A stretch of DNA of 60,068 bases from a virus. Taxonomy: Duplodnaviria; Caudoviricetes. The stretch is from positions 1 to 60,068 of IMG/VR virus record IMGVR_UViG_3300009509_000023. One strand, 5' to 3'. The notes beneath the pieces are model-generated. The model was given only the letters and a program-made list of their open reading frames with translations, searched no databases and was not told the DNA's origin. Shown piece after piece: positions 2,144 to 51,298 of this stretch. The first letter of the stretch is position 1; every line of letters begins with the position of its first letter. Both the position numbers and the translations under genes were made by a program.

Positions 2144-3484
2144 ATGAGCGCGTCCGATTTGGATATGTGGTTCGTGTCGGCACTTCTGAGAGCTGACATA
2201 TCGTCCACTCGTCAAGCGGTGATACGAGGGGTGGATAGCTCGTATTTGCACGGCAACGGTCGGAAGGTCTGGGAATTCACCCAGGACTACATGAAAAAGT
2301 ACAACGAGCTGCCGGACATTGCGATTGTCGAGGCGCAGCTCAGCGTGACTCTTCCCGTTCCGCCGCCAGCTCCCGAGGACTACTTCACCGATGAAATTCT
2401 CGACCGACGCCTATACAATGAGATCGGGAAGCAGCTGGCCGAAGTCGATCACTGGCATCGGGCGCAGGATCCTCACGCCTCCTACGCGGCTTACGAGGAC
2501 GGCCTTCGCGCTGTGAGAAAACTAGGTGTTGCTACTCAGAGGACGGTGAGCCTGCTATCGCTCGGGCCGGACTTCCGAGAGTACTACGAGAAGATACGAG
2601 ACGGGCATCGAGGCGTTCTGACTCCGTGGCCTACGGTGAATGAGGCTACGCTGGGGTTCTGGCCGGAGGACTTCATCCTCTACGTGGCTCGGCTCGGTGT
2701 CGGTAAGACGTGGGCGCTTGTGATCATCGCGAATCACGCCTGGTCGGTGCAGAAAAAGCGAGTGCTGTTCATCACGACAGAGATGGGCCGCGAGAAGATC
2801 TACCAGCGGTGGATCGCAGTTCACAAAAAGTACCCCTATGACCTGCTGCGCAAGGGGATGCTCGGCGCGTTCTCCGAGCAAGTCATGTTCGACTGGATCG
2901 AGAAGGTTCAACACGATGACGGTCTGTACATCATCGGAGGCGACTTCGACTTCAGAATCGAGAGCGTCGAAGCCGCCATCGAGGAGCGAGAGCCCGACAT
3001 CATTTTTCTCGACGGCGCCTACCTGTTGAAAGTCGAGGGAGCGTCTAGGCAGGAAAGAGCCGCAAACTCTTACGATGAGCTGAAGCGCATAGCCAAGCGC
3101 AACCATCTTCCGTTGGTCGCTTCAACGCAGTTCAACAGAGAGGTGAAGGGGAACAAGACCTCGAGCCTTGGCGCGGAGAAGATCGCCATGTCGGACACTG
3201 CCGGGTGGAACGCCGACCTCATCTATGGTTTGATTCGGACGGAGGACATGGTGCAGGACAATCGGATGCTCCACTACCCGTTGAAATTCCGCGAAGGAAG
3301 AGGCGAGGACCTCGAGACGCATTGGGATTTCGACACCATGAATTTCGACGAGCTGCCGAAGGGCGCGGCCGCGGCAGCAGCTGGAGGAGCTGGAGCGCCT
3401 GGAGCTGCTACGGCTCCAGCGCCAGACCCGGACCCAGACCCCGATGTCGGGGCGCTCTTTGGAGATGATGCGGATCCGTTCTAA
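2144..3484 (+). CDS. dnaB: Replicative DnaB-like (SF4) helicase
   Basis: ARLGVGKT Walker A, FITTEM, DIIFLDGAY Walker B, STQFNR, KFREG; Ala/Gly/Pro-rich tail ending DDADPF. Confidence 0.9.
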   Translation: MSASDLDMWFVSALLRADISSTRQAVIRGVDSSYLHGNGRKVWEFTQDYMKKYNELPDIAIVEAQLSVTLPVPPPAPEDYFTDEILDRRLYNEIGKQLAEVDHWHRAQDPHASYAAYEDGLRAVRKLGVATQRTVSLLSLGPDFREYYEKIRDGHRGVLTPWPTVNEATLGFWPEDFILYVARLGVGKTWALVIIANHAWSVQKKRVLFITTEMGREKIYQRWIAVHKKYPYDLLRKGMLGAFSEQVMFDWIEKVQHDDGLYIIGGDFDFRIESVEAAIEEREPDIIFLDGAYLLKVEGASRQERAANSYDELKRIAKRNHLPLVASTQFNREVKGNKTSSLGAEKIAMSDTAGWNADLIYGLIRTEDMVQDNRMLHYPLKFREGRGEDLETHWDFDTMNFDELPKGAAAAAAGGAGAPGAATAPAPDPDPDPDVGALFGDDADPF

Positions 3485-3930
3485 TGCCAGCAAGACAAAC
3501 GCCAGTACTGGTCAAGCATTGCGCCCTCGCTATTTACAAGAGCGGGTGGTGTACGGGATCGAAGGTGGAGCGAGTACAGCAAGCGTTGGACATCGCTGTG
3601 CACCGTCTGATCGAGTACAAATTTTTGTGGAAGAACGCCGGGAAGGTCGCCCCGGAAAAGATAAAACTCACAGCGAAGGGGCAGAAGGCTGAAGCTCGCC
3701 ATCGAAGGGAGAAGAACGCGAAGATCAAAACAGATGCGTGGAATGCGCTCTACAAGTTGATTCAGGAAGAGGCAGAAGAGGACGACGGTTCAGGAGGCAC
3801 GTCTCAAGAGGCCGGCGATGTCGGAGAGCCCGCGAAAGGCTCGAAGCAGAAGAAGCGCCGCCGGTTGGCGCACTCGGCCAGGCGTCGGCCAAAGAGGGCG
3901 AAGCGTGTAAAGCGTGCCAAGAGAGGGTGA
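3484..3930 (+). CDS. Hypothetical basic protein
   Basis: Translationally coupled (TAATG) to dnaB; K/R-rich C-terminus; no recognisable family. Confidence 0.65.
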   Translation: MPARQTPVLVKHCALAIYKSGWCTGSKVERVQQALDIAVHRLIEYKFLWKNAGKVAPEKIKLTAKGQKAEARHRREKNAKIKTDAWNALYKLIQEEAEEDDGSGGTSQEAGDVGEPAKGSKQKKRRRLAHSARRRPKRAKRVKRAKRG

Positions 3931-3931
3931 G

Positions 3932-5041
3932 ATGGACATCAAGCACATAGAGAAGTTCGTCAGAGGACTGGGGTGTAGGGAGATTTCTAGCGGGAATGGC
4001 TGGGTGCGCTGCACGTGTCCGGCGGATTATCTGCATGGGGGAGGGAAGGATCGCAAACCATCATTCGCTATCAGAATCGTGCCCGGCGGTGAGAGTCGAT
4101 GTCGCTGCCAGGCGTGCGGTGTTCACGGTTCTTTGACTCACCTGCTTTGGAAGCTGAAGGCGGATACGGGCCTGTCGAAGCCCGAGCTGTTCGAGCTGTT
4201 GACGAAGCACAATCAGATAGACGCCGAAGCCGTGCTTGATAAGCCCGAGCACCACGAGCGAAAGGACGCGCACAAGAGGCAGTACGTTCCGAGAATAGCG
4301 CGCAAAAGCAACTTCGTTCACCCCGACGACGAGCCGCAGAGTGTTGTTCCAGAAGCATACCTAGATCGACTGAGAGACATTCCCGATCATGCGGTGAAGT
4401 ACTTGTACGGTCGAGGAATAGAGCAGGAAACGATAGATAGGTGGGAGCTGGGTTGGCTCGACCAAGACGGGCGCATTGTCATTCCGATACGAGATGAGGA
4501 AGGAAAACTTGTTGCAGTAAGCGGTCGCCTTTTGAACTCGGACCAATGTGTTTGCGGCGGGATGATGGAAGCCTCTTCCAGCGGAAAGACCAGATGCGGT
4601 ATGTGTCATCGCGCTCCGCCGCCAAAGTATCTTCACTCATCAGCGTTTAAGCGAGATCGCGTGTTGTTTGGAGGTCATCTCCGCAACCCTTCCATTCGCA
4701 AGGGATACCTGTTCGAGGGATTTTTCCAGACGATCTTCTCATCGCAGTGCGGGTACTCGAACACGCTCGCGCGTATGGGGACGCATTTGAGCTTTCAGCA
4801 GGCGGAGAAGCTGGTCCGGTGGTTCGACCATCTGATCATCGTTCCCGACGGAGATAAACCCGGGCGCGACGCGGCGGAGAAGGACGCTAAGATGTTGGAG
4901 CTGTTGGAGGTCGAAGGCGATTCGTCTGGCATCCTGAAAATATCAAAGATCGAAATCGCGGATATGCCGGATGGTGCGGACGCTGACAGCCTCGATCCAG
5001 ATAAATTGCGCGAGCTTCTGGGCCCTATAAATTCGGCTTGA
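3932..5041 (+). CDS. DnaG-type primase (Zn-binding domain plus TOPRIM)
   Basis: N-terminal CP..H..C..C, YLYGRGI, RIVIPIRD...VSGR, PKYLHS, TOPRIM FEGFF, PDGDKPG, DADS. Confidence 0.9.
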   Translation: MDIKHIEKFVRGLGCREISSGNGWVRCTCPADYLHGGGKDRKPSFAIRIVPGGESRCRCQACGVHGSLTHLLWKLKADTGLSKPELFELLTKHNQIDAEAVLDKPEHHERKDAHKRQYVPRIARKSNFVHPDDEPQSVVPEAYLDRLRDIPDHAVKYLYGRGIEQETIDRWELGWLDQDGRIVIPIRDEEGKLVAVSGRLLNSDQCVCGGMMEASSSGKTRCGMCHRAPPPKYLHSSAFKRDRVLFGGHLRNPSIRKGYLFEGFFQTIFSSQCGYSNTLARMGTHLSFQQAEKLVRWFDHLIIVPDGDKPGRDAAEKDAKMLELLEVEGDSSGILKISKIEIADMPDGADADSLDPDKLRELLGPINSA

Positions 5042-30918: not shown

Positions 30919-32556
30919 ATGGGAAAGACCGCGAAAAAGAAGCTCGTTGACGAGCAAGTCCATCACGGCAAACTCGAGTTGGTCGAGGGCGAAGGAGCTA
31001 AGCAGGGTCGTGTTTTTGCTCGGGGAGAGTTCGGTCACGCGGTGAACCCTACCGCCAACAAGCGCCTATATCGCCACTCCATCTGGGAGAAGAATTTTTC
31101 ACGACTCCAACCCAACTTGGAGTCGAAGAAGATCCTCGGGGAATTGGATCACCCGACAGATGGGCGAACAGCCTTGACTCGTGCTTCTCACGTCATCACC
31201 GATCTCCGTTTGGAGGGTGATATCGTGCTGGGAGAGGCCGAAATTCTCGACACCTCAAAGGGCAGAGATTTGAAGGCCATTCTAGCGGCCGGAGTTCCAG
31301 TTGGGATCAGTTCTCGAGGGTACGGAAGCACGAAACCAGGAAATGACGGTATCGAAGAAGTTCAAGACGACTACAGGCTCATGACCTTTGATTTTGTAGC
31401 TGAGCCGGCCGATCCGACGGCGTACCCCGAAGTCGTGTTCGAGAGCGAGTCGGAGAGCAACGCGAGCATGATGTTCGAGGGCGCAACGATAGAGGAAGAA
31501 GAGTCAGAAGAGGAAGAGTCGGAAGAAACTTCCGACGCCGAGGACGCTTCTTCAGACGACGAGACTGAGGATGTCGATGATGAGTCTTCGGACGAAGTCG
31601 ACGAACAGGAGATGGCCAAGCGTTTTGCCGAAAAGGTGTTGGCCGATGCGGGCAAAAAAGAGTCCGTAGAGAACCTTCGCGAAGAGTTCACCTCGAAGAT
31701 CGTAGAGCGCATAACAGCGCTCCGATCGGATGTCGAGAAGCAGGTACGCAAAGAGCTGGAAAGCGATCCAGAGTTGGGCGCGGCTAAGACTGTGCTCGCT
31801 CAGATAAGGGAAACACTCCAACCGCTGTTTTTGAGCGAGGATGTTCAGGAGATCATCGCCGCGAAGGACGCCGAGATCGAAGTTTTACGATCTCAGCTCG
31901 ACGAAGCGGAGTTGAGAATCGGCGGCATGGAGGAGCTGATTGAGAAGCTGACTGAGGCTGCGAGAGAGGCCGGCTACAAGTACCACCTCGAGTGCTTGCT
32001 CCGAGAGAGCGATTCCGACGCCGATCGAGTTCGTGAGATCGTGGGCGATGTGTCGCAGTACGATTCCCCCGACGCACTGAAGGATCGTGTGGAAGAAGCA
32101 CACGCGGAGATGGCGGCGTTCCGGATCGAAGAGGAGCGCTTGGAGCAAAGAAGGCAAGCGGAGTCCAGTCGTTTGCGCAACAAAAACAGGCAGCTGGCAG
32201 AAAGCCTGGAAGAGGCTCTCGTGGCCAACAAAGACATGGCGCTTCAAATATACGCGGCTAAGAGGTTGCAAACTCATCCACAAGGTGCGAAGATCCTTCG
32301 CATGCTGGAACGATCTGGAATCCAAACCAAAGAGCAGGTGGATGAGATGATCGAAGAGTTCAGGGAGCCTGAGCGCGATGTCGATGATCTCGAAGCCATT
32401 CGTGCTCGCGTTCGTTCCCGCCTTCAAAGCGGGAGAGAATACATGGAAGAGGATGTTCAGTCTGCCAGTCGTCGTGGTGGTGGAGGTTCGAGAAACTACA
32501 ACGGTCTCGGAGCCTCCCTAGCGGATTTGAAACATCTTGCCGGTGTGAGAGACTGA
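30919..32556 (+). CDS. Prohead protease (T4 gp21-like) fused to a coiled-coil scaffold
   Basis: NKRLY, GELDHP, ASHVIT, GISSRGYGS, TFDFVAEPA, then an acidic linker and a long helical region. Confidence 0.9.
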   Translation: MGKTAKKKLVDEQVHHGKLELVEGEGAKQGRVFARGEFGHAVNPTANKRLYRHSIWEKNFSRLQPNLESKKILGELDHPTDGRTALTRASHVITDLRLEGDIVLGEAEILDTSKGRDLKAILAAGVPVGISSRGYGSTKPGNDGIEEVQDDYRLMTFDFVAEPADPTAYPEVVFESESESNASMMFEGATIEEEESEEEESEETSDAEDASSDDETEDVDDESSDEVDEQEMAKRFAEKVLADAGKKESVENLREEFTSKIVERITALRSDVEKQVRKELESDPELGAAKTVLAQIRETLQPLFLSEDVQEIIAAKDAEIEVLRSQLDEAELRIGGMEELIEKLTEAAREAGYKYHLECLLRESDSDADRVREIVGDVSQYDSPDALKDRVEEAHAEMAAFRIEEERLEQRRQAESSRLRNKNRQLAESLEEALVANKDMALQIYAAKRLQTHPQGAKILRMLERSGIQTKEQVDEMIEEFREPERDVDDLEAIRARVRSRLQSGREYMEEDVQSASRRGGGGSRNYNGLGASLADLKHLAGVRD

Positions 32557-32621
32557 ACTGAGTTGTGAGTTACTGGCGGGCGACACGACGATCCGCCGAA
32601 GAGGAGAATAAGGAGGCAACC

Positions 32622-34118
32622 GTGGAAGCTCGACAGATGCTTCAGGAAGAGGGTCGTCGAACGATCGCCGACCAGAGCTATGTCGGAGCCCTTATCCGGA
32701 AGTGGGGAGACTTCCTGGAGGGTCTGGCAGATCGCAGCGAGCAGGATCGGTACATTCTCGGATGTACTGCCATGCTCATGGAGAACGAGTCGTTGTGGCT
32801 CCAGTCCCTCACCGAGGAGACGCGGACCGTCAACGTTGGCTCGTTCACCAAGTTCATCTTTCCCGTTTTGCGGAGAGTTTTCCCGAACTTGATCGCCAAC
32901 GAAATCGTCTCGGTTCAGCCGATGACGGCCCCGATTGGCGCGGTGTTCTTCCTGGACTATGTCTACGGAAGCACCAAGGGCGGGACGACTGAGGGCGCGG
33001 TATTCCCCCGCGACTTCGACCGCGACTACTCCTCGGAGTACGTGAACGGTGAGCCGCTCGTCACTGGCGACGGAACCAACTACGTCGCGGGCCAGACTCC
33101 GCTCGACGCGACGCTGGCCTGGACCCCGGTTCGTCCGCTCGACTCGGCTCGAGGATTCGCAGTGGTCTTGAAAGAGATCGATTCGTCCACGGGCGAGGCG
33201 ATTCCGAGTCAGACGATCCAGGACGACGGCGCGGGCAATTTCGCCTCTCCGGCAACCGCCGGAACGATCAACTACGCCAATGGCCAGATCGTTGGTGTAG
33301 AGTTTCCGGCTGCTCCGGCGTCCGGGAACCAGGTCAAGGCGTACTACTACTTCGACGGAGAGCTGAACACCAAGGTTCCCGAGGTGAAGCTCGATGTCAA
33401 GAAGGCCCCCGTCGAGGCAGTTCCCCGTCGGCTCAAGGCTCTGTGGTCCTCCGAGGCCGCGGAAGACCTTCGCGCATTCCACGGACTCGACGCCGAGACC
33501 GAGATCGTGAGCATCATCGCTCAGGAGATCGCTCTCGAAATCGACCGGGAGATCATCCAGGACCTGTTCCTGTCTTCGACCGGAACTACCGGAACGTTCG
33601 ATCGCGTTCCCCCCGGAGGTATCGCGGAGATCGACCACATCCGTGCGCTGCTCACGCAGATCAGCACCGTGTCGAACCTCATCCACAAGAAGACGCTTCG
33701 CGCGCCCGCGAACTGGATTGTCACGAGCCCCGAAATCTCGGCGCTTTTGACCCAGCTCACGACCCACGGCGACTTCAAGCCGATCTGGTCGTCGGACATG
33801 AACCCGAACAGCCCGACCGACGTTATGCGTCCCCGGACTGCTCACGGTCAGTTCTCGATCTACAAGACCGGCACGCTCATGAACAAGTGGGTTGTGTATG
33901 AAGATCCCTTCTTCACGACCAACAAGATGATGATCGGTCTGAAGGGCGGATCGTTCCTCGAGAGTGGCTTCGTGTGGGCCCCATACGTGCCTCTCCAGGT
34001 CACGCCGACCTTCCTCGATCCGAGCGACTTCAGCTTCCGCAAGGGTCTCCGCACCCGGTACGCGAAGAAGCTGCTGCGGCCCGACTTCTATGGGCAGTTG
34101 ACCATCAACAACCTGTAG
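32622..34118 (+). CDS. Major capsid protein (T4 gp23-like)
   Basis: RBS AAGGAGG then GTG 32622; FPVLRRVFPNLIANEIVSVQPM, RRLKALWS.EAAEDL, EIALEIDREII, APYVPL, KGLRTRYA. Confidence 0.95.
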   Translation: MEARQMLQEEGRRTIADQSYVGALIRKWGDFLEGLADRSEQDRYILGCTAMLMENESLWLQSLTEETRTVNVGSFTKFIFPVLRRVFPNLIANEIVSVQPMTAPIGAVFFLDYVYGSTKGGTTEGAVFPRDFDRDYSSEYVNGEPLVTGDGTNYVAGQTPLDATLAWTPVRPLDSARGFAVVLKEIDSSTGEAIPSQTIQDDGAGNFASPATAGTINYANGQIVGVEFPAAPASGNQVKAYYYFDGELNTKVPEVKLDVKKAPVEAVPRRLKALWSSEAAEDLRAFHGLDAETEIVSIIAQEIALEIDREIIQDLFLSSTGTTGTFDRVPPGGIAEIDHIRALLTQISTVSNLIHKKTLRAPANWIVTSPEISALLTQLTTHGDFKPIWSSDMNPNSPTDVMRPRTAHGQFSIYKTGTLMNKWVVYEDPFFTTNKMMIGLKGGSFLESGFVWAPYVPLQVTPTFLDPSDFSFRKGLRTRYAKKLLRPDFYGQLTINNL

Positions 34119-34140
34119 TTTCAACAGGTTATGAGACTCC

Positions 34141-39487: not shown

Positions 39488-42025
39488 ATGGCTGAGATTT
39501 TATCTCCCGGCATATTCATCGAAGAGGTGCCGAGCGCGGTACAGGTGGTTCAGCCTGTTTCCACATCGAACATGGGGATCATCGGCGCGACTCAGAGGGG
39601 CCCGACGGACGAGGCGACTCTGGTCACGTCTTTCGCCCAGTTCACCCGCATTTTTGGTGAGCTGATCGCGGACTCGTGGACCGGCCTCTCCATGGCCGCG
39701 TATTTCGCGAACGGTGGAAGGCGGGCCTACGTGGTTCGCGTCATGCCGGGCGACGCCTCAGAGGCGGACGGCAGAGTCACAAGCGCGCGATACGACTTCA
39801 CGTGCTTCACCGGAAACGCAGTCAAGGTCACCATCACGGACACAGACGCGTCCGGCGTCGTGTTGGCGGATTTCCCCGTGTATGCCCTGTCGGGTACGGC
39901 TGGAGTGACGTGGAGATGGCGCGCTGACGACACGCCCGTGACGACTGAAAACTTGTATGAGAGAGACGGCGTGACCGCTCTCGTCCAGGACACTGTCGGT
40001 CACGTGAATCACCACTACGAGGGCCGAGTCATCACGTCGATGCCGAGCGATGGCGTGGATTCAGCGCTTCCGAGCATCATGCCCGGAGGCACGATCACGC
40101 TGAACTGGGATCCGACCGGCAGTTCTCCACTCACGATGACGCTGACTCAGGTCGGGACGACTCTTCGAGCTGCCGGAACGACTGTGCAGAATTCGGAAGC
40201 GGTGCTCGATCTCGTGACGGGGTATCTGTCCATCACGTTTGCCGGAACCGATGTTCCTGTGGTCGGCGGCGATGGAACCAACATCACGCTCGACTACACA
40301 CCGGGAACGGACGTGTACTCGGTGTCGGACGATGGAACAGGGGCCATTCCCGCGGATGGAACGATTCTGGCGGGTGCTGGAACCGTCACCTACGCGACGG
40401 GCGCGTATTCGTTCACGGTCAACGCCGGGTACGAGCCGGGAACAGACTGCCCTGTCGTGGTCGACTACGATGTGCAGGCGTGGGACCTCGATCCAATCTC
40501 CGTCGGAACGTGGGCGAATAACATGAAGCTGGAGGTCATCGGAAACGACGACTACTACACGGTGGCTACGGACACCTATTCCCGCTTCAATGTCAATGTT
40601 CGACTACTCAACTCTTCGACGAGCCTCTACGACATCATCGAGACCTACGAGGAGATTACCTTCACTGACTCAACGTCGGCGCAGTACTTCCCGGATGTTC
40701 TCAACGACCTGTCGGACTTGGTCAACGTCGTAGAGCCGGCGCTCAACGAGGAAGGACCGCAACACCTCAATGGGCGAGCGCGAAGCCTCGTTATGGCTGG
40801 TGGAGATGAGCTGGCCTCGAATCGTCAAATCACGACCACCCTTCTCGACCTTCCGATCTCTCCGAGGTCTTTCAGCATCTCGTGGACAGATGACACGGGA
40901 ACAGCGAGAAGCATCACAGACGACGGCGCCGGCAATCTCATCGGCGACGTTGACGGTGCTGGCAACAACACCCTCAGCTACACCACGGGCGCTCTCGATG
41001 TGTTGCTGTCGAACGCCATCGGGCAGGACCAGCTCGTCACGGCCGACTACCGTAGCGTTTCCGAGGAGGACAACCACCTCGACATCTTTGCCAACGGCAC
41101 TGACGGCACGTTCGATGCTACCAACTACGGTCGGAACCAGTTCACGGCGATTACCCTCGAGCCGAACTTCCAAGGCCTATACGCCTTGAACAAGATCGAG
41201 GAGCTGATGCAAGTCGTCATTCCGGACTTCGCTGGAGACATCCAGATCACGAAGGACTTGATGGACTACGTGGACAGTCGAGAGGTACTGCCTTCGGGCG
41301 GCGATCGTTTCGCCATCCTCATGACTCCGCAGGGTTCGACGGCGCAAGAAGCGGTGGACTTCCTTCGACTCGACGTTCTTCAAAACACGAAGTTTGCGGC
41401 GATGTACTGGCCGTGGGTGAAGGTCGCGAACCCGCTGGCCGACAACAGACCGATCGTGTTCCCTCCGTTGGGGCACATCGCTGGCATCTACGCGCGCACG
41501 GACTCCACGAGGAACGTGGGCAAGGTTCCGGCGGGCACCGTTGACGGCGCGCTTCGTTTCCTGGTTGGATTGGAGTTCGACGCAATCAGCCAGGGAGAGC
41601 GCGATATCGTCTATCCGGCGAGGATCAACCCCCTCGTGTCGGGGACGCAGACCGGCCTCGCTGTCTGGGGTGCGCGAACAACCTCTCTTCAGAGCGAGTG
41701 GCGCTACATCAACGCGCGCCGTTTGTTCATGTTCGTCGAGAAGAGCGTTTACAACTCGACACACTGGATCGCCTTCGAGAACAACGGGGCGGACTTGTGG
41801 GCGAGGATCAAGGCCCAGCTGCAGGGCTTCTTGACGAACCTCTTCAACGACGGGCTGTTTGCGGGAACGACTCCGGCGCAAGCTTTCTTCGTGACCGTGG
41901 ACGAATCGAACAACGACCAGGCGTCGGTCGACGCCGGCCAGGTCATCATCGACGTGGGCATTGCACCGAACAAGCCGGCCGAGTTCGTGAGATTCAGGTT
42001 CCAGCAGAAGACGCTGGATTCCTAG
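39488..42025 (+). CDS. Contractile tail sheath protein
   Basis: LSPGIFIEE, YFANGG, AAMYWPW, PPLGHIAG, VWGART, WRYINARR, FENN, IAPNKPAEFV. Confidence 0.95.
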   Translation: MAEILSPGIFIEEVPSAVQVVQPVSTSNMGIIGATQRGPTDEATLVTSFAQFTRIFGELIADSWTGLSMAAYFANGGRRAYVVRVMPGDASEADGRVTSARYDFTCFTGNAVKVTITDTDASGVVLADFPVYALSGTAGVTWRWRADDTPVTTENLYERDGVTALVQDTVGHVNHHYEGRVITSMPSDGVDSALPSIMPGGTITLNWDPTGSSPLTMTLTQVGTTLRAAGTTVQNSEAVLDLVTGYLSITFAGTDVPVVGGDGTNITLDYTPGTDVYSVSDDGTGAIPADGTILAGAGTVTYATGAYSFTVNAGYEPGTDCPVVVDYDVQAWDLDPISVGTWANNMKLEVIGNDDYYTVATDTYSRFNVNVRLLNSSTSLYDIIETYEEITFTDSTSAQYFPDVLNDLSDLVNVVEPALNEEGPQHLNGRARSLVMAGGDELASNRQITTTLLDLPISPRSFSISWTDDTGTARSITDDGAGNLIGDVDGAGNNTLSYTTGALDVLLSNAIGQDQLVTADYRSVSEEDNHLDIFANGTDGTFDATNYGRNQFTAITLEPNFQGLYALNKIEELMQVVIPDFAGDIQITKDLMDYVDSREVLPSGGDRFAILMTPQGSTAQEAVDFLRLDVLQNTKFAAMYWPWVKVANPLADNRPIVFPPLGHIAGIYARTDSTRNVGKVPAGTVDGALRFLVGLEFDAISQGERDIVYPARINPLVSGTQTGLAVWGARTTSLQSEWRYINARRLFMFVEKSVYNSTHWIAFENNGADLWARIKAQLQGFLTNLFNDGLFAGTTPAQAFFVTVDESNNDQASVDAGQVIIDVGIAPNKPAEFVRFRFQQKTLDS

Positions 42026-42500: not shown

Positions 42501-43052
42501 ATGGCACGGCCAGTAGCAGAAGACTTTCTTCACTCAATGCGGTTCCACGTGCAAGTCATCGACGGGACATCCCCGTCAGGTGAGCGTTTGGGGCCTCCAG
42601 AGGCTGGATTCTCGATGTGCTCGGTTCCAGAAGCCACGGTTGAGGCCGTGGAGTACAAAGAGGGAACCTACATCTACACCCGGAAGCAACCGGGAAACAC
42701 CACCTTCTCCGACATTTCGATGTCTCGTGGGGTGGCGATCACGGATACGGCTTTCTGGATGTGGATCAAGACGGTCATCGAGGGTTCTGGGGAGTATCGC
42801 GAGGATATTCGCATCAAGCACTATCATCGCGAAGAAGCGCTCGTGGGAAGCGGTGATGTCGGAAAGAACTTGACGGCGATTCCGACGGGCGGGGAGACGA
42901 AAGCGGCGAGGGTATACGAGGTCTTCAACGCGTTTCCGGCTCGCCATAAGGTGGCTGGCGACCTCGATGCGACGGCGTCTGAAATCTCCATCATGGAGCT
43001 GGACCTGTCTTACGAGTACTTCAACCTGATAATCAACGCCTCTACTGCCTAG
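42501..43052 (+). CDS. Tail tube protein (gp19-like)
   Basis: AGFSMCS.PE, VEYKEG, KQPG, ISMSRG, NAFP, DLDA, ELDLSYE. Confidence 0.9.
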   Translation: MARPVAEDFLHSMRFHVQVIDGTSPSGERLGPPEAGFSMCSVPEATVEAVEYKEGTYIYTRKQPGNTTFSDISMSRGVAITDTAFWMWIKTVIEGSGEYREDIRIKHYHREEALVGSGDVGKNLTAIPTGGETKAARVYEVFNAFPARHKVAGDLDATASEISIMELDLSYEYFNLIINASTA

Positions 43053-43136: not shown

Positions 43137-43163
43137 ATGACTCGATCGGCGATTACGGACTAC
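43137..43163 (+). pseudogene. Orphaned original 5' end (MTRSAITDY) of the second tube gene
   Basis: ATG ACT CGA TCG GCG ATT ACG GAC TAC encodes the same nine residues as 44009-44035. Confidence 0.8.
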
Positions 43164-43195
43164 GCCTCGAACAAAATTTGCAGTAGACTCGTGGT

Positions 43196-44008
43196 ATGCC
43201 GTTTCAAAAAGGTAATGTCCCGAAGAACAGAATTGACATACCTATCGAGGAGCGAGAGTTGATTTCGAGTCTATACAGTCAAGGGTATAAGATTCGAGAC
43301 CTGTCTACTCGAACAGGCTTGTCTGTGACGTGGTTGTCCGATCATCTGCGAGCGTGGGGTGTGCAAAGAGACCCTGACGCTGTTCGTAGACGACGAAATC
43401 GTGCTGGGAGTTCGGTAGGGGCGGATACCTCTTTTCTGAAATCTTGGACTCCAGAGAGTGCGTGGGTTTGGGGTTTATGGTTTGGAGATGGGTGGGTTCA
43501 GCGCTATCGAGTATCGATGGCAGCGAGCGAAGAAGTCGCTCGGAAGGTGCAGAGGATTTCGGGAGCATCGAGCGCTTTGAATCCTGGGAATGGATGCGTG
43601 CACTTCGATCTTGGTGGAACGGACGCTGTTCTTCTTGTGGAGGATATGTTTGGTTTGCGTCCGGGTCCTAAGTCAGAAGTTTTATCATGGCCTGACGTAC
43701 CCTCGAATGTAGAGTCTCATTTTCTTCGGGGGCTATGGGACTCGGATGGGTCGTTTTACGTGCAGCTTTCAAAAGGTCGCCCTTATCTTGGAACGACGTT
43801 CTGCTCCAAGTCGGCTGCGCTTGTACTAGGAGTCCAGGATGCCGTGAAGAGGCTCGGCGAACAAAGCAGACCGGTTGAACGGAATCGAGGACTGTATCTC
43901 ATACGATGGAACGGTAGGTACGCGAAGAACCTGGGGGCGCTTCTTTATGCTGATAGTGAGGACCCAATGCGTTGCTCTCGGAAGCATGCTATTTGGGAGG
44001 AGGCGTAA
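43196..44008 (+). mobile_element. Free-standing LAGLIDADG homing endonuclease with N-terminal HTH
   Basis: AWVWGLWFGDG and HFLRGLWDSDGS motifs; no Hint domain; flanked by duplicated gene starts. Confidence 0.85.
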
Positions 44009-44791
44009 TTGACAAGGTCTGCGATCACGGATTACCTCCAGAACTATCCGTTTTGGTTGATGGACATCGCTCCAATTGAGCCTCTAGCTCAGCCGCTCTT
44101 CACACCGCTTCTCGGATTTTCCTCCATATCGGCGCCGGAGCTGACGATCGAGATCACGGACATCACAGAAGCAAACTGGTTTTTCAAGCGTAAGGTGGTT
44201 CGTGGCGGCGACGTGAGCAACATGACGTTTGTCAGAGCTTCGAAGTGGTACGACAGCGACTTTTACCGCTGGGCTTTGTCCGCGCTGATGGGGAACACAG
44301 GAGGGCACGGAGGCTCCCGCTCGATGGCTCTTGGAGGAGCTACGCCGAGACGCGACCTTCTTCTCATTCACTTCTTGTCTCGGAGCCCCCTTCCACCGAT
44401 AGGGACTAACGTGGCAGCGATCTCCGGAACACTGGCCATTCAAGGGACCGCTACAGGCCTCGTAGGGGGCGTGTCGAGTCTGGCTAGTCGAGGCTACCTA
44501 GAACACGCTACCGCGATCACAGGGGCCGGTGCGGCGGCAGCAACAGGCGCGCATATGGGGCCCTTCGAGTTCATCCCCAGACTGCCTGCGAAGGCTTGGG
44601 TTCTCTACGGCTGCATTCCGACGCGATACAAGACTGGAGGAGATTTCGACGCCACGGACGCTTCCATATCGCTACAAGAGTTGGAAGTGGCTCTCGAGGG
44701 GTGGGACGAGCTGACGCTGGGGAGCGATGCTGCGCCACAAGCCCTAGGGTTTGCCATTGCGGACGCGGCCCGAACTGGAACTACGAGGTAA
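44009..44791 (+). CDS. Second tail tube-like protein (gp19 paralog, possible tube initiator)
   Basis: GFSSISAPE, CIPTRYK..DFDA..ISLQELE; TTG start with RBS GGAGGAGG. Confidence 0.8.
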   Translation: MTRSAITDYLQNYPFWLMDIAPIEPLAQPLFTPLLGFSSISAPELTIEITDITEANWFFKRKVVRGGDVSNMTFVRASKWYDSDFYRWALSALMGNTGGHGGSRSMALGGATPRRDLLLIHFLSRSPLPPIGTNVAAISGTLAIQGTATGLVGGVSSLASRGYLEHATAITGAGAAAATGAHMGPFEFIPRLPAKAWVLYGCIPTRYKTGGDFDATDASISLQELEVALEGWDELTLGSDAAPQALGFAIADAARTGTTR

Positions 44792-45056: not shown

Positions 45057-45620
45057 ATGGACGAAGTTCTGAAGTCAACCCCGAAGGACAGGCAGGAAAC
45101 ATGGGCCACGCGGGTGTGGGAGGCGTGCGGAGGAAGATGTTCAAACTGCGGGTCAACAGAACGGCTCGAGGTGCGGATGATCGTTCCGAAGGAATCGGGA
45201 GGTCAGGAGGTGGTCAGCAACGGCACGCTCCTGTGTAGAACGTGCGAATTGGCTCGGGAGCTGAGCCACAAGCCGGCGGTCTCTGGTGAGAGGACGCGGC
45301 CCATCAACTTTTTCGTCAGCAAAACCCTCCACGAGAAGCTGAAAAATGGGCTCGCGTCGGACTACGGGTTCAAGAGCGTGTCGGCGCTCGTGCGTTTTTT
45401 GATGACGAAGTTTGTCACTCACCCGAGCAGGTTCGACGATCTCGCGATGTACCAGGAAAGCGGATCGGACGTGAAGGTCAACGTTTGGGTCGACCGAGAG
45501 ATGTATGATCGCTTCAAGGCGATCACCGATCGGGACGGCGTGACTGTGACGGATACGCTGAAAGGGCTCATACGCATGTACGAGTCAGAGGCGAAGAGGA
45601 TTGTAGGAAGGACGAGATAA
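45057..45620 (+). CDS. Degenerate HNH Zn-finger fused to two ribbon-helix-helix domains; probable regulator
   Basis: CSNC..LEVRMIVP..GG..N..LC..C lacks the His residues; INFFVS..LHEKLK..SVSALVR and VNVWVD..YDRFK..TVTDTLK. Confidence 0.7.
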   Translation: MDEVLKSTPKDRQETWATRVWEACGGRCSNCGSTERLEVRMIVPKESGGQEVVSNGTLLCRTCELARELSHKPAVSGERTRPINFFVSKTLHEKLKNGLASDYGFKSVSALVRFLMTKFVTHPSRFDDLAMYQESGSDVKVNVWVDREMYDRFKAITDRDGVTVTDTLKGLIRMYESEAKRIVGRTR

Positions 45621-46462
45621 TGAGCGAAGAACATCTGCGGGATGAACTAGCGAAGGGGGCCCCGGTTGGAGGGGCTATCGAGCACATTCACACTGTCAAT
45701 CAGATGGAGACCCCGAAATCGGCGACTGGCGTATTCGAGCTGCCGTGCGGGTATCTCGACCCACAGACACAGGAGCTGGTCACCGAGGTCGAGGTCCGAG
45801 AGATAACGGGTTACGAAGAAGATATGCTCGCATCGGACAACGTTCCGTCGGAGCAGAAAGTGTCGAATCTGATCAGCGGTTGTGTGGTACGCATCGGCGA
45901 AGAGACTCACAAAGGTCGAATTGCCGGGATGCTGCAGAACTTCATGATGGGTGACAGAGTTTTCCTCGTATTCGCGATCCGCCGTGTGACGCTCGGGGAC
46001 GAACTTCCAGTCCGAGAACGCTGTCCCGACTGCAAAACCACCACGCTGTTCATGGTGGACCTCGAAGAAGAGCTTCAACCGAGGGAAATGCCGGACCCGA
46101 GGAAGCGGGTATTCGATGTGCAGCTGCCCTCTGGTTTGTCTGCCCGATTTCGGGTATCGACTGCTGCAGACGAGGTGAATATGGCAAAACTCCGTCGGAG
46201 GCAGAAGCAAAAGTCGGATGTGCTGTCTCAATCGATACTTATGCGATTGGAGCTACTTGGGGATGAAAAGCCCACGCTGAAGATGGTAAAGTCTTTGGGT
46301 ATGAGAGATCGACACTTTCTGCGCGACAAATTCCGAGAGGTGGAAGGCGGGGTGGACACGACGTTGCAGCTGTCTTGCCCTTCGTGCGGAAACGAGTGGG
46401 AGAAGGATCTAGACCTGAGTTCATCGAGTTTTTTCTCCCCTGGGGCTCCGCAGAAGCCCTAG
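45620..46462 (+). CDS. Tail assembly chaperone / hub-assembly protein (gp26-like, Zn-binding)
   Basis: ELPCG, GDRVFL, CPDC, VQLPSG, GVD, CPSC; upstream of the tape measure gene. Confidence 0.75.
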   Translation: MSEEHLRDELAKGAPVGGAIEHIHTVNQMETPKSATGVFELPCGYLDPQTQELVTEVEVREITGYEEDMLASDNVPSEQKVSNLISGCVVRIGEETHKGRIAGMLQNFMMGDRVFLVFAIRRVTLGDELPVRERCPDCKTTTLFMVDLEEELQPREMPDPRKRVFDVQLPSGLSARFRVSTAADEVNMAKLRRRQKQKSDVLSQSILMRLELLGDEKPTLKMVKSLGMRDRHFLRDKFREVEGGVDTTLQLSCPSCGNEWEKDLDLSSSSFFSPGAPQKP

Positions 46463-46644
46463 AGAAGGAAATATTCTACTTGATGGAGTCGTGGAACGGT
46501 CTCCCCTATGAGTCGATCATGATGATTCCGGTCACCCGGCGTCATCGACTGATGCTCCAAAAGAGCAATTTGGAGCGTCGGAGGCAGCAGAACCAGGACG
46601 CTGCCATGGCTCGTGCGAGAGCGCGCTCTAGGCGTCGACGGTAG
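46429..46644 (+). other. -1 frameshift site (T TTT TTC) and C-terminal extension of the tail chaperone (G-T type)
   Basis: In-phase heptamer 46429-46435; hairpin GGGCT/AGCCC 46443-46459; -1 frame reads EKEIFYLM...IMMIPVTRR to 46644. Confidence 0.8.
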
Positions 46645-46652
46645 GAGAGACT

Positions 46653-46664
46653 ATGGGCCTCAAC
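46653..46664 (+). pseudogene. Orphaned original 5' end (MGLN) of the tape measure gene
   Basis: AGGAG RBS then ATG GGC CTC AAC, against ATG GGT TTG AAT at 47405. Confidence 0.65.
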
Positions 46665-46670
46665 TGGATA

Positions 46671-47369
46671 CTACTTCTGGCTACGGTATTTTCCTCGGGA
46701 CCAGTTCAACACGGTAACGTCGGAAACTCCAAACTCCTCGGCCAGGATTCGGCTACTCTCTCCGGATTTGTGCCTGTTGATGATCTCTCGGACAGTATTG
46801 TCGTCGATTCGGGCGAGCACGTCGTCTCGTGTCTGACTGTAGGTTTTAGACGGGGTGATTGGGCCTTCGGCGTGCTTCCAGGTTTTTCCAGTGCAAACAG
46901 ACGAGATACACGCCTGAGTAACTCCGTATTCTTCAGCGAGCGCTGTGAGCTTCTCTCCAGATGCTCTGCGTTGGCGAATATTGACAACGTCTTCAGCGCA
47001 GAGCTTCTCTCCAGAACGACGCCGTCCGAGAACTCTGAAGGCATGAAGGGTGTTTTCTCTCACGGTTACAGCTTCAAGATTTTCCAGACGATTATCGTCT
47101 CGCACACCGTTGAGGTGGTTTATTACATATCCTTTTGGAATCGGACCACGAAAGGCCTCCCACATAAGTCTATGTACTCGCCGCGCTATAGCATGGCCGC
47201 CTGGACGAGACAGGCCGACTTGCGCATAGCCGTCCCGGCAGTATCCGAGTTTGAGGAGTCTCCCTGCTTTGGTGCGAGTTACCGATGTGAGCCGGCGTAC
47301 TCGACCTCGACTCGATATTTCATAGGCCTCCGGAAGTTCTACCACTGGTTTCCATGTCTCTTTAGTCAT
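46671..47369 (-). mobile_element. Free-standing NUMOD4-HNH homing endonuclease with two C-terminal HTHs
   Basis: WKPV...YEISSRGRVR (NUMOD4), VHRLMWEAF.GPIP...INHLNG.RDDNRLENLE...EN; the only credible minus-strand gene in the window. Confidence 0.9.
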
Positions 47370-47404
47370 GAGCCCAGTGTATCACGAAACAGAAAGGGAT
47401 GCAC

Positions 47405-50400
47405 ATGGGTTTGAATTTTTTAGGACTTGGATTTTCGTTCGGCGCTAAAGATGTCGGACTGGAGTCAGCCCTCGCTGGTTTGAATAACCAATTCAAGCAA
47501 CTCGATGACTCCGTTACGAGCTTCAAAGATGCTTCTTCCGGAGCTTTCTCCCCAGCAGAAGAGGCCATCGAGGGCATAAAAGACCAAGTAGCGGATCTGC
47601 TCGATGTTGGGTTGGACAATCTGTCATTTGACGACGTGGCTGTCGATTCTTCTGACGTGGTTGCGGCGAAGGACGCAGTCGAAGGGCTCGGAAGTTCCAC
47701 CGAGACGGGCGCTACCGAGTTCGGTCGTATGGCGAACAGTGTTCTTGGTGGATCTGGGAAAATAACAGGAGCACTTGGATGGATTGGTTTGGCCATCGGT
47801 CCTGTCATTGGCGGGTTTGGGCAGGCTGCCGAATCGGCTGGAGGGATGATCGATACGCTTGCCGGTATTCCAGGAAGAATAGGTGGAACGATCCACCGTT
47901 TGGCGAACGACGGCATAAATCTTACGAACAGTCTCGAGGGTGAAGCCGTTGGTATGGCGCAGACTGCTCGGCAGGTCGGCGTCAACATGGGTTACGTTGG
48001 ACAGGATTTGAACCGCTTTATAGGCCAGGCGACTGGAATGGCTATGGGCCTCAACATCGGAGCCGATGATGCTGCGAAAGCCATTCGTGGCTGGGATGAG
48101 GCGGCGGAAACGCTCGGAGCCACTGGTATCACGAGCGCGCGAAATCTGGCTCAGCTCACAGCCGGTTTGGGCATTGAAGCTGACGTGCTTCGTAACACCA
48201 CTCTCGAGATGCGCAACTTGGGCGCGTCCGATGACCAGATTCGTCTCATAACTTCTTCATTGGCGGCGATGGGTCAGCAGACCGGAGATGTGGCAGGGGC
48301 TCTAAACCAGCTTCCAGACGTGATCCAGATGTTGGAGCGCCGTAGGGCTCTGGGGGACACTCCCGAGCAAATGGCCGCATTTGCGGCGGATACGGCTGCC
48401 GCGGCGCGGGGATTGTTCGCCTTCACCCAGGACTCCGAGCGCGCGCGAGCTATGGCTCAGCAGTTAGCGGGTACTGTGACAGAGAGTCGCGAGGCCTTCC
48501 AGAACATGTTTGCCGGGGCGGAAGACCAGTTGCCTCAGTTGGTGAGCGAGCTATCGGTTGTTTCTGGGGATGTAGATGCGGCTTTTGAGCATATGGCTGG
48601 AGGCCCCGGTCAACTTATCGAGGGAATGGGCCAACTTGTTCAGCTGACACGCGCACGAGGTGGCAATGTAGGTCAGGTGTTGGAGTTTATGCGCGGACGG
48701 CTCCAGCAGGTTTTTGGCAATGATATGACTGCCACGCTGGTCAATTTCTGGGATCGGATGGACGATAGCACGCTGGCATCTATGGCGAATATTAGAGGTG
48801 CTTCTGTCGACCTCGGAGAGCTGGGAGCGGCAGCTCATTCGACAGGGCGGACGCTGGATGAAGTTTTCGAGCGTATGAGAGCTGGGTTCCAGACGGCCTT
48901 CCGCCGAATCGCAAGGCCCGCGGTTCGAGACTTTGTGCGAGATACTGGGGGAGCGCTTCGGACCCTCCAGCGCCGTATGAATGAGGCGAGAGACGACACA
49001 GGAGCGCTCGGGACGGTCATGGAAACCCTTTCGCTGTCTTCGCAGATCGGCGGTCTGGCTCTAATGCCGCGAGAACTTCGTTCCACGACGATCGCGGCTG
49101 ATGAACTTCAGGGTATGGTGACGCCTCTTATCCAATCCTTCACAACGTGGGGAGGACTGGTCGAGACGGTCGGCTCATATGTTGCCCTCTTCGCTACCGA
49201 GGTCATTCTGGCCAAAGAAGCCGGGATGAGTTGGGGAGCTGCGATCGACAAAGTGGCTGACAAGTTCGCGGGCATATTTGTGAAAATGATCGGAAAAGCC
49301 GAGACATTTCTCACCGACTTTGCAAATAGGTTTGCGACGTTTGATTGGAACACTCTGTTTGGAGGGGCGGAAGAAGGAGCAGGCGAAGAGGGGCCGCTAG
49401 GTCGAATATTCAGAAAACTTGAAAGCGTGGACTGGGGCGGCATTTGGGCGAACATCCGAAAGGGTTTCGAGAACCTCTTCAAATTGATGGAGCCGTGGCT
49501 CACTCAGAAGATGGAGACGTTCAAAACGGTGGTGTGGGAACGTCTTGGGAGGTGGTGGAGCGAGATCGACTGGATGGGCATATTGGGAACCATGGGGGAC
49601 CTGGCAGGGGCCCTGTGGACTGCCGTGCAGCCGGCATTCAGCGAGCTGGGAGACATGATTGGTCAGTGGTTATCTGACCATTGGATCGACATCGTTCTAA
49701 TCTCAAGCGCGGCTCTGGTCGGGGCGTTTGTCGCTCTTGTGCTCGCGGCTATCGGTGCTGCGGTGGCGATTCTTTTGGCTCCTGTTGGCGCCGCTTTCCT
49801 GTTCTGGTCGGAAGCGTGGGAGCGCTGGGGAGACGATATCATCGCCTACTTCGAAGGGCTCGGCGAAGACATAGCCGAAATCTGGCAATTCATAGTGAAT
49901 GAGGTTGGCGATCTTCTTCGGGACTTTGGGGTGTGGATCGAGGAGACGTGGCAAGGTGTTGTCGACTTCTTCACAGGCGCGTGGGACGGCGTTGTCGGCT
50001 TTTTCGAGGGCATAGGCGAGGGTATTCAGGGCACGATTCAGGGGGTCGTAGATTGGCTCTCCGACACGTGGAACGGGTTTATACAGTGGTTCGTAGGCAG
50101 GTTTCCGGAGACATCCCAAGCGGTAGCAGAAGCCGCGGCGAATTGGAGGCGTCGGTTTGAGTCGATTCGAGACTTTGCCATTCGGGCGTGGGACGCAATC
50201 AAGGGGTACATCTCTTCAGCTGTCGACTGGATAACCACAAGGTTCCAATCCCTTGTAGAAGGTGTTTCCAACACATGGATGCAGGTCGGGGCGGCCATCT
50301 CGACGGCGTTGGAGTGGATCAGCGCGAACATCATTCAGCCTTATATCGACAACCTGTCGAGGATTTGGTCTGTGGTGTCAGAGACCGCGTCGACTGCGTG

Positions 50401-51298
50401 GGAATGGATAGAGGGGATCGGGGAGACCATTCAGGAAAACTTAGTCGATGTGGCGACTGTGCTTCAAGACGCGTGGTCGGGGATCGTGACCTTCTTCCAG
50501 GACATATTTGCGAGACTTGGAGAAGCGCTCGCCCCGGTTAGTAGGCTGTTCGGTTCGATTGGGGAGTCGGGCGTGCAGGCGCTCGACTCTATCATGGCGA
50601 CGGCTGTCCGCCTGTTCGGAGGATCGATCAACACCGTGGTTGGCGAGGACATGGCTTCGACCGAAGAAGTCATGACTCAGGCGGCGAACAACGTGTCCGA
50701 GACTATGCAGACCGTTCTATACGAAGCGACTGTGAGTGCCATCGTTGACGGATTTTCAGAGGGCTTCGCTCAAGTAGTCGAGAACATGGGAGAGTTTACC
50801 GACAGCATGGTCGAGGCATTTTCGACTCTGAACGATCGGATTCTGGAAATAACGTCTGACCTGTTCGGGGCAGTGATTTCTCAAGCCGAGATCACGATGA
50901 TCGCTTCCGAGACCGCTGTCGAGGGGATCATTGGACGACTGCGCACCATTACTCAGGCCCAGGCGGCGCTTGCTTCAGCGAGGACTGAGGCCATCGAATC
51001 GTTGTCTAGACCCGCCGACGAAGATGCGATGCGCCGTAGGTTGGCGCAGTTGGCGGGCAATGAAGTTCTTCAGGCTATTCACCATCCTGACTGGTATAGC
51101 GGATTTGGCAGCGTAGAAGGATACAGAACGCTGTTCATACAACACATGAATGCTCTGAAGAACGCTATTGAGGCGCTCGGGACTGCGCCTGCGACCGGAG
51201 CGATGGAGGAGCGCCGTCGAATTATCAGAGAGGCTGCCGAAGCAGTTCGTCGAGGTCCGGGGGGTCAGCCGCGAGTTCCGGGTGGAGCAGGGAGGTAA
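47405..51298 (+). CDS. Tape measure protein
   Basis: About 1297 aa, Ala/Gly-rich and helical; W/F repeats with about 11-residue spacing; hydrophobic segment; position after the chaperone. Confidence 0.88.
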   Translation: MGLNFLGLGFSFGAKDVGLESALAGLNNQFKQLDDSVTSFKDASSGAFSPAEEAIEGIKDQVADLLDVGLDNLSFDDVAVDSSDVVAAKDAVEGLGSSTETGATEFGRMANSVLGGSGKITGALGWIGLAIGPVIGGFGQAAESAGGMIDTLAGIPGRIGGTIHRLANDGINLTNSLEGEAVGMAQTARQVGVNMGYVGQDLNRFIGQATGMAMGLNIGADDAAKAIRGWDEAAETLGATGITSARNLAQLTAGLGIEADVLRNTTLEMRNLGASDDQIRLITSSLAAMGQQTGDVAGALNQLPDVIQMLERRRALGDTPEQMAAFAADTAAAARGLFAFTQDSERARAMAQQLAGTVTESREAFQNMFAGAEDQLPQLVSELSVVSGDVDAAFEHMAGGPGQLIEGMGQLVQLTRARGGNVGQVLEFMRGRLQQVFGNDMTATLVNFWDRMDDSTLASMANIRGASVDLGELGAAAHSTGRTLDEVFERMRAGFQTAFRRIARPAVRDFVRDTGGALRTLQRRMNEARDDTGALGTVMETLSLSSQIGGLALMPRELRSTTIAADELQGMVTPLIQSFTTWGGLVETVGSYVALFATEVILAKEAGMSWGAAIDKVADKFAGIFVKMIGKAETFLTDFANRFATFDWNTLFGGAEEGAGEEGPLGRIFRKLESVDWGGIWANIRKGFENLFKLMEPWLTQKMETFKTVVWERLGRWWSEIDWMGILGTMGDLAGALWTAVQPAFSELGDMIGQWLSDHWIDIVLISSAALVGAFVALVLAAIGAAVAILLAPVGAAFLFWSEAWERWGDDIIAYFEGLGEDIAEIWQFIVNEVGDLLRDFGVWIEETWQGVVDFFTGAWDGVVGFFEGIGEGIQGTIQGVVDWLSDTWNGFIQWFVGRFPETSQAVAEAAANWRRRFESIRDFAIRAWDAIKGYISSAVDWITTRFQSLVEGVSNTWMQVGAAISTALEWISANIIQPYIDNLSRIWSVVSETASTAWEWIEGIGETIQENLVDVATVLQDAWSGIVTFFQDIFARLGEALAPVSRLFGSIGESGVQALDSIMATAVRLFGGSINTVVGEDMASTEEVMTQAANNVSETMQTVLYEATVSAIVDGFSEGFAQVVENMGEFTDSMVEAFSTLNDRILEITSDLFGAVISQAEITMIASETAVEGIIGRLRTITQAQAALASARTEAIESLSRPADEDAMRRRLAQLAGNEVLQAIHHPDWYSGFGSVEGYRTLFIQHMNALKNAIEALGTAPATGAMEERRRIIREAAEAVRRGPGGQPRVPGGAGR

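Follow-up and report, generated by a model that had tools for sequence, protein, structure and literature searches.

To persist, a homing endonuclease gene must do little harm to the genome that carries it, and for the free-standing genes found in phage operons the means of limiting that harm are known mostly from the promoters, terminators and hairpins of phage T4. The mobE gene of phage Aeh1 is reportedly a nuclease gene that lies inside the coding region of the essential gene nrdA, whose protein is made as two pieces, and I-HmuI of the Bacillus phage SPO1 is an intron-encoded HNH homing endonuclease that nicks one DNA strand. Here we describe a nuclease gene that occupies the start of a tape measure protein (TMP) gene in the IMG/VR viral contig IMGVR_UViG_3300009509_000023, a stretch of 60,068 bases, estimated to be 38% complete, that is called the window throughout. 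We consider it probable that this gene is part of an I-HmuI-like free-standing homing endonuclease cassette which has entered, in antisense orientation, directly after codon 4 of the TMP gene, and which is translationally transparent by way of a long host-sense open reading frame (ORF), here called the bridge ORF, that crosses it. The arrangement is like that of mobE in nrdA in that a homing endonuclease gene lies inside an essential coding region whose function is retained, and unlike it in that the left piece in the window is only four codons long and is duplicated, so that the TMP is whole. Unlike I-HmuI, the predicted window enzyme is free-standing and has a different C-terminal helix-turn-helix (HTH) module.

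The free-standing homing genes of the T4-like phages, the seg and mob genes, show overlaps with neighbouring genes that suggest translational coupling, and segD among them is antisense (PMC2988022, in the sections available). The window element shares with them the apparent lack of an intron or intein, a position between or beside conserved genes, a patchy distribution and the need to fit host expression; it differs in that it lies inside the coding start of an essential gene, brings a replacement start, is antisense and leaves the host-sense frame open, and a host-sense open frame across the insert is not described for seg and mob genes in those sections of PMC2988022. Two phages offer partial parallels within virion genes. 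In ICP1 an HNH-3 gene interrupts the TMP gene, whose transcripts undergo splicing (PMC10055350, in the parts consulted), and the major capsid gene of LittleE has an 819-bp spliced insert with a nuclease ORF on its bottom strand (excerpts of PMC3706429). ICP1 shares the TMP target and LittleE the antisense nuclease inside a virion gene, whereas the window has no detected intron family and a second complete start that makes splicing unnecessary. Finally, genes that overlap as ATGA or TGATG can be coupled by termination and reinitiation (PMC6728339, from the portion available). The bridge ORF is comparable in that it ends in ATGA or ATGNNNNTGA and, at other sites, starts 0-3 nucleotides (nt) from the previous stop; it is unlike the usual case in that the middle ORF is apparently a spacer whose sole defining property is that it lacks stops opposite a selfish gene. 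Free-standing homing genes, their need to fit host expression and the presence of nuclease genes in or near TMP genes are thus already known. Our literature search, whose coverage was incomplete, turned up neither a stop-free host-sense frame crossing an antisense endonuclease gene nor an endonuclease insert flanked by a duplicated gene start.

The ends of the insert are marked by a repeated gene start. The sequences ATGGGCCTCAAC at 46653 and ATGGGTTTGAAT at 47405 both encode MGLN and flank the minus-strand HNH gene; the two 12-mers differ at four positions, and 4/4 of these differences are silent. The first copy, here called the stub, is the original TMP start (46643-46664, plus strand), in which AGGAG (46643-46647) and a spacer precede ATG GGC CTC AAC, and it aligns with the starts of relatives whose site is empty. 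The second copy (47405-47416) opens the 1297-codon TMP gene (47405-51298, plus strand; phrog_58, E 3e-27), which begins ATG GGT TTG AAT TTT TTA GGA CTT GGA TTT at 47405. The two starts are 752 nt apart, the insert and one repeat together making up these 752 nt. A sequence-only reading of the same DNA had pointed out the MGLN copies and the minus-strand HNH gene, with coordinates that are all exact, and had called the new start unusually T-rich, which is borne out: the 36 nt from 47405 are 50% T against a mean of 20% in the window, a value reached by 0.012% of its 36-nt windows. It had also called the four-codon match weak on its own, and so it is. When 55 gene proxies were screened for a start codon followed by identical residues 2-4 within 1 kb upstream, three matches were found besides the MGLN pair, against a mean of 1.4 with permuted peptides and at least two in 44% of the permutations. 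The match by itself is therefore at chance level in the window, and the case for an insertion rests on its position and on relatives, which uphold it.

These relatives were drawn from viral and metagenome contigs by way of the TMP and of the chaperone-like gene that precedes it; the phage GenBank collection gave no match (blastn of 45600-48600; tblastn of the TMP N-terminus). In the empty-site relatives (L010/L011, L012, L013, L046 and others) the chaperone stop is followed by an equivalent ribosome-binding context and a single start of the form G/ATG G-- YTS AAY, which runs on into TTC ATG GG.. and the remaining TMP; L046, for example, reads ..ACT GTG GGC CTC AAC TTC.., and the empty sites of the window's own clade read TAG GAGGCGGCA GTG GSN TTG AAY TTC ATG GG... 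In most relatives the stop of the ORF that extends the chaperone gene is followed 10-60 nt later by a single TMP start, M/V/I-x-L-N-F-[LM]-G-x-G-F-S-F-G-A-K-D, and the N-terminal pattern MxLNF[LM]GxGFSFGAKD is conserved family-wide. When aligned, the left junction of the window tracks the empty sites through the stub and then diverges, and the right junction rejoins them from the ATG. The 35 nt before this new ATG (47370-47404) form a cassette-borne spacer whose plus strand holds the new TMP ribosome-binding site, GAAAGGGA (47392-47399), and whose minus strand is the HNH gene's 5' leader; this spacer is absent at empty sites, and is identical at 33/35 positions between the window and the occupied relative L021, although the genes of the two are only about 70% identical. 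The empty-site alignment and the absence of this spacer from empty sites identify the left MGLN as the ancestral start and the right copy as the cassette's and, because the empty relatives hold one start, the cassette must lie after TMP codon 4 and bring a replacement ribosome-binding site, ATG and four codons. The sequence-only reading had predicted such empty sites, with the chaperone stop directly followed by one M/V-G/A-L-N start and the rest of the TMP, and they exist as foreseen; of the two outcomes that it had counted against an insertion, empty relatives matching only the downstream T-rich version and four-codon matches at chance frequency, neither overturns it, although the second does hold. 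Both junctions of the occupied form are bridged by contigs from two other public studies (X15, 46478-46722 and 47228-48600; X16, 46477-46784). Spacing to GAAAGGGA and homology with the empty sites favour 47405 as the predicted TMP start. We note that an in-frame ATG CAC at 47399-47404 precedes this ATG (MHMGLN...), and that the same is found in L021.

Splicing would be another way to preserve the TMP, if the insert were a self-splicing intron after TMP codon 4 that carries the HNH gene on its bottom strand. The LittleE capsid intron and the ICP1 TMP intron are precedents, as far as the parts of PMC3706429 and PMC10055350 at hand describe them, and Rfam can miss divergent introns. Nonetheless we regard an intron as very improbable, since Rfam gives nothing at E<=1 for 46300-47800, nor any family at gathering score across the entire window, and since every occupied lineage conserves, at the downstream copy, a separate ribosome-binding site and ATG. 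The stub of the occupied lineage L042 reads VSLL, and asparagine 4 is invariant in the TMP alignment, so this stub cannot serve as a TMP N-terminus. Group I introns have U at the end of exon 1 and G at the end of the intron (PMC3706429, same excerpts), and no equivalent position of the two repeats fits this rule.

The silent differences between the two copies had been interpreted in the sequence-only reading as a recoded restart, and they might in principle have been selected, as a recoding against the cassette's own nuclease or against deletion between the repeats. Across six lineages about 11 silent and 3 replacement codon differences separate stub from new start, and a lower repeat identity would reduce precise excision. 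We think such selection unlikely: in L021 the start codon and a single silent site are all that separates the copies, GGC CTC AAC of the stub serves as the working start of the empty L046, GGT TTG AAY of the new start is shared by L021 and the empty L020, and a silent-only pattern is what would be expected if the copies had evolved as working TMP starts in separate lineages before they were joined. Recoding as a strategy is not needed, then, and the differences are probably ordinary synonymous variation between lineages in a TMP N-terminus that appears to be under strong protein-level selection. The same reading had further proposed a general class of splice-free homing elements; its insertion stands, and the new general class does not, as these are known free-standing homing endonuclease genes.

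The inserted gene (46671-47369, minus strand) encodes a 232-residue protein with the domain order NUMOD4, HNH_3 and C-terminal HTH, and is recognised by the Pfam families HNH_3 (E 1e-19, 70.3 bits against a cut-off of 24.8), NUMOD4 (E 8.2e-12, 45.6 bits against a cut-off of 23.4) and HTH_7 (E 3.8e-5) and by phrog_59 (E 4e-49). NUMOD4 and HNH_3 score above cut-off in 5/5 occupied lineages, and H85, N97, N106 and H109 are invariant in the HNH alignment. The closest solved structure by sequence is that of I-HmuI (PDB 1U3E, E 2.8e-7), to which residues 6-108, the NUMOD4 and HNH core, align. The five HNH proteins form one family, 34-75% identical, with differing accessory HTH modules. Identity between the window gene and its L014 ortholog at the three codon positions is 0.76/0.86/0.47, as would be expected of an intact gene under purifying selection. 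Homing is assumed from the family, and nuclease activity and a target are likewise predicted. On the minus strand, A-rich DNA upstream of this gene could, at a guess, be its promoter.

The most unusual feature of the locus, which the sequence-only reading had overlooked, is the frame that begins at the old start. The ATG at 46653 opens a plus-strand frame of 253 codons (46653-47414) that is the exact codon-complement of the HNH gene and spans all of it, ending at a TGA (47412-47414) that overlaps TMP codons 3-4 (ATGGGTTTGA). This bridge ORF is open in 5/5 occupied lineages and in the remnant L053, where 46 open codons end in ATGCCTTTGA. Measured from the old start, the HNH stop lies at 18, 21, 12, 12 and 24 nt in the five lineages, always a multiple of 3. 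In 5/5 occupied lineages the bridge ORF stops on top of the new TMP start, in an ATGA or ATGNNNNTGA overlap; the geometry in L021, L036 and L053 is that of the window, and L042 and L035 have the ATGA overlap. The new start is ATG in 6/6 occupied or remnant alleles against 2/9 empty ones, and Leu3 is TTG in 6/6 against 4/9; since a TTG at Leu3 supplies the bridge TGA, this explains part of the T-richness of the new start.

Because the two frames are codon-complements, stops in the bridge ORF can come only from TTA, CTA and TCA codons of the HNH gene, and these three number zero in all five HNH genes (189-264 codons), which is why the bridge frame stays open. Three null models were used, based on local codon usage (null 1), on a rate dependent on G+C content and fitted to co-oriented homologs (null 2), and on how often the gene itself takes A-ending codons in other codon families (the within-gene null 3). 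Under null 1 the probability of a zero count is 0.031, 0.076, 0.34, 0.25 and 0.065 for the five genes. Null 3 expects 10.3, 7.3, 3.7, 7.6 and 4.7 stop-complement codons, the product of its five zero probabilities being 5e-18, and on 32 co-oriented homologs it is well calibrated (307 observed against 329 expected). Other rare codons are overrepresented in the window HNH gene (53 against 30.4 expected), and the sense-strand LAGLIDADG gene is likewise rich in rare codons but has 8 stop-complement codons. We conclude that selection keeps the complementary frame open.

What this selection might protect is the protein encoded by the frame, 46653-47414 then being a functional antisense overlapping gene; in favour of this are the length of the ORF, its good ribosome-binding site and start, and a frame that is open in all lineages. 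Against a functional product, however, stands the sequence itself. Between window and L014, identity is 75% for the HNH protein but drops to 45% for the bridge protein; no Pfam family was found in any of the four bridge ORFs scanned; the third-position identity of the HNH gene (0.47, against 0.51-0.53 in neighbouring genes) indicates no extra constraint at its silent sites; and L053 retains a mere 46-codon open frame. A functional bridge protein is in our view very doubtful, and it is openness alone that is conserved in the bridge ORF.

An open frame of this kind would fit the following course of events. The cassette would extend from the 3' end of the HNH gene to the replacement TMP start with its ribosome-binding site, ATG and four codons, and this start would allow the full TMP to be made from 47405 without splicing. 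Ribosomes that finish the chaperone ORF would initiate 9 nt further on at the old start, just as TMP translation would begin in empty genomes, cross the insert in the bridge frame and terminate on the new TMP start (the TGA lies 7 nt into the TMP gene), where reinitiation would be helped by GAAAGGGA. Translation of the bridge would keep chaperone and TMP coupled and would spare about 750 nt of otherwise untranslated late mRNA from Rho or RNases; with coupling preserved and polarity avoided, the backwards nuclease gene would therefore cost the phage little. The antisense placement would in turn shield the nuclease gene from strong late transcription. The nuclease would cut or nick cassette-free TMP alleles of co-infecting relatives, whose repair would copy the cassette in.

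If bridge translation does confer such a benefit, the locus suggests a further solution to the problem of limiting harm, in which the codon choice of a selfish gene keeps a bridging frame free of stops, with a spare start supplied where the start of the host gene has been clipped. It would also be a testable case of synonymous-site selection for the sake of the opposite strand and, if true, purely to keep that strand translatable. For annotation, a long "hypothetical" ORF that faces an HNH gene on the other strand may prove to be a spacer, and for design the same arrangement could allow cargo to be placed in phage operons without polar effects.

Antisense homologs at other sites bear on how general the arrangement is. 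Eighty loci of HNH homologs were classed by the strand of the longest ORF on each side, giving 32 co-oriented genes, 25 antisense to both neighbours and 23 mixed or unknown that were set aside; an earlier "embedded" class (any ORF of at least 80 codons near the HNH gene) was dropped as noisy at high G+C, 46/79 loci having fallen under "other". Stop-complement codons are entirely lacking in 10/25 antisense genes against 0.34 expected, and in 1/32 co-oriented genes against 0.2; without two loci that repeat TMP-site lineages the antisense count is 8/23 against 0.19 expected. The antisense distribution is bimodal, with some genes that match the null. The stop-free antisense genes lie between real structural genes of the opposite strand, namely head-tail adaptor or head-closure genes (L092, L094, L124 and L131, also L148 and L157), a baseplate wedge gene (L118), a portal gene (L120) and, in other phage groups, two further TMP starts (L079, L080). 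In 6/7 loci read the bridge ORF begins 0-3 nt from the stop that precedes it, and these ORFs close in ATGA-type overlaps with the following gene. No duplication of the N-terminal peptide of the next gene was evident by eye at other antisense HNH sites (for example at the adaptor and head-closure genes); the duplication goes with insertion inside a coding start, as at the TMP site and at the LAGLIDADG gene of the window, and is not a feature of the class. We lean, with somewhat less assurance than for the TMP cassette itself, towards regarding antisense homing cassettes in phage structural operons as a class of translationally transparent selfish elements, free of TTA, CTA and TCA, with a spacer ORF coupled at both ends and with a replacement start if they lie inside the first codons of a gene.

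Several observations weigh against these interpretations. Three tightly sandwiched antisense homologs (L088, L089 and L141) have 5-7 stop-complement codons, so an open bridge frame is not obligatory, and orientation in the survey was taken from the longest flanking ORFs, not from real gene calls. Two of the five TMP-site lineages have high zero probabilities (0.34 and 0.25) under the local-usage null. The five HNH genes are one family, and the architecture may go back to one event, so the lineages are not fully independent, a concern lessened by the saturation of synonymous sites. Window and L014 have diverged as far in the HNH gene as in its flanks (about 70% DNA identity), and therefore no recent transfer is visible. 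A sigma-70 promoter scan of 45500-48200 found none on either strand, and thus no promoter for the HNH gene. The contigs of four DNA sequencing runs contain no joint that skips the insert and no empty allele, their coverage being fragmentary; as the runs are of DNA, translation of the bridge ORF and its benefit are predictions. The window and L021 are mutually nearest only in TMP nt 1-114 (0.80 against 0.75 identity), a short stretch whose grouping, set against chaperone affinities, is a weak hint of possible co-conversion.

A zero count can also arise otherwise. The major head gene (32565-34118, plus strand; phrog_138) has no TTA, CTA or TCA, and here the zero arises by general codon optimisation, as rare codons overall number 37 against 68.7 expected; stop avoidance in the HNH gene is specific, because that gene lacks the general depletion of rare codons that codon optimisation requires. 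We note that opposite the head gene there is a 542-codon shadow ORF (32496-34124, minus strand), a caution for any screen for open antisense frames. Such long shadow ORFs in the window, and bare four-codon matches at chance rate, are what might be cited if match and open frame were put down to chance or composition around an ordinary intergenic nuclease gene. This is extremely improbable, given that the empty-site alignments put the stub exactly at the ancestral start, that the null 3 product over five lineages comes from a model that fits the co-oriented controls, and that the HNH gene is enriched, not depleted, in other rare codons.

The TMP start is a hotspot used by two nuclease families, with decayed copies. 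In a survey of 35 distinct chaperone sequences (63 loci with a long chaperone match), the minus-strand NUMOD4-HNH gene was found at the TMP start in five lineages (the window, L021, L042, L035 and L036), L053 has a remnant comprising only its last ~25 codons, and 25/35 chaperone sequences were scored as empty. Mapped on the chaperone tree, the HNH label must change 5 times, and well-supported branches force 4 of these changes. The second family is represented by L027, in which a sense-strand LAGLIDADG gene (3000-4004) lies at the TMP start, its stop overlapping that start as GTGA. A short ORF in L072 (~1420-1625) matches the first 27 and the last ~21 residues of the L027 protein (E 1.7e-4 for the N-terminal part, 0.025 for the C-terminal part) and looks like an internally deleted LAGLIDADG remnant. 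L032/L055, labelled by eye as another such remnant, gave no tblastn match and was withdrawn, and L026 matches the LAGLIDADG gene only at E 0.30 (tblastn).

Some further features of this region are recorded here. TMP residues 5-7 in the window clade are F-M-G in 6/6 empty alleles (L017, L019, L020, L046, L047 and L049) and F-L-G in 3/3 occupied or remnant alleles (the window, L021 and L053); in more distant empty relatives they are mostly F-L-G. The split may reflect the nuclease target, a resistant allele or a co-converted tract. A conserved palindrome with a CACGTG core (e.g. GGACCACGTGGTCC) follows the chaperone stop in many relatives outside the window clade, and was found between that stop and the TMP start in L007, L026, L027, L028, L032, L033, L036, L059, L061 and L071. 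Several relatives have ATC or ATT as the first codon of the conserved TMP N-terminus (L007, 6978; L032, 4001; L047/L051, 945/3260; L072, 1627; L073, 1114), with no in-frame ATG, GTG or TTG upstream, which suggests a putative non-canonical TMP start codon.

Around the insert the plus strand of the window holds a contractile-tail module, as judged from the ORF list, Pfam and PHROG, with the sheath (39488-42025), the tube (42501-43052), a LAGLIDADG gene (43196-44008), a second tube-like gene (44009-44791), a conserved HNH/ParG-like gene (45057-45620) and the short form of the tail assembly chaperone-like gene (45620-46462; PF12322 T4_baseplate, E 8e-9; phrog_150, E 1.5e-14), which lies upstream of the TMP gene in all relatives. 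The 187-residue protein encoded by 45057-45620 has an HNH zinc-finger-like N-terminus and a ParG or ribbon-helix-helix-like C-terminus; it is 47-79% identical and unchanged in place in all relatives examined, and is a fixed component of the tail module, not a mobile nuclease gene. The chaperone extension ORF (46375-46644 in the ORF list, plus strand, with its TAG stop at 46642-46644) lies between chaperone and TMP in most relatives by tblastn and is likely the frameshifted long form of the chaperone. The two ORFs overlap by 88 nt around GAGTTTTTTCTCC, with a T-run near 46430, in an arrangement common to the relatives; overlap and T-run suggest that a programmed frameshift probably occurs here, as in tail assembly chaperones.

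The LAGLIDADG gene of the window was the first case put forward in the sequence-only reading, and it too proves to be an insertion: 43196-44008 is unmatched in 12/12 loci of relatives, and an old start with nine codons lies upstream. At this site (window 43137-44791) the old context of the tube gene and its start with nine codons (MTRSAITDY) are kept at 43137, and the tube gene restarts at a TTG at 44009, directly after the LAGLIDADG stop, the sense-strand nuclease ORF itself bridging the gap.

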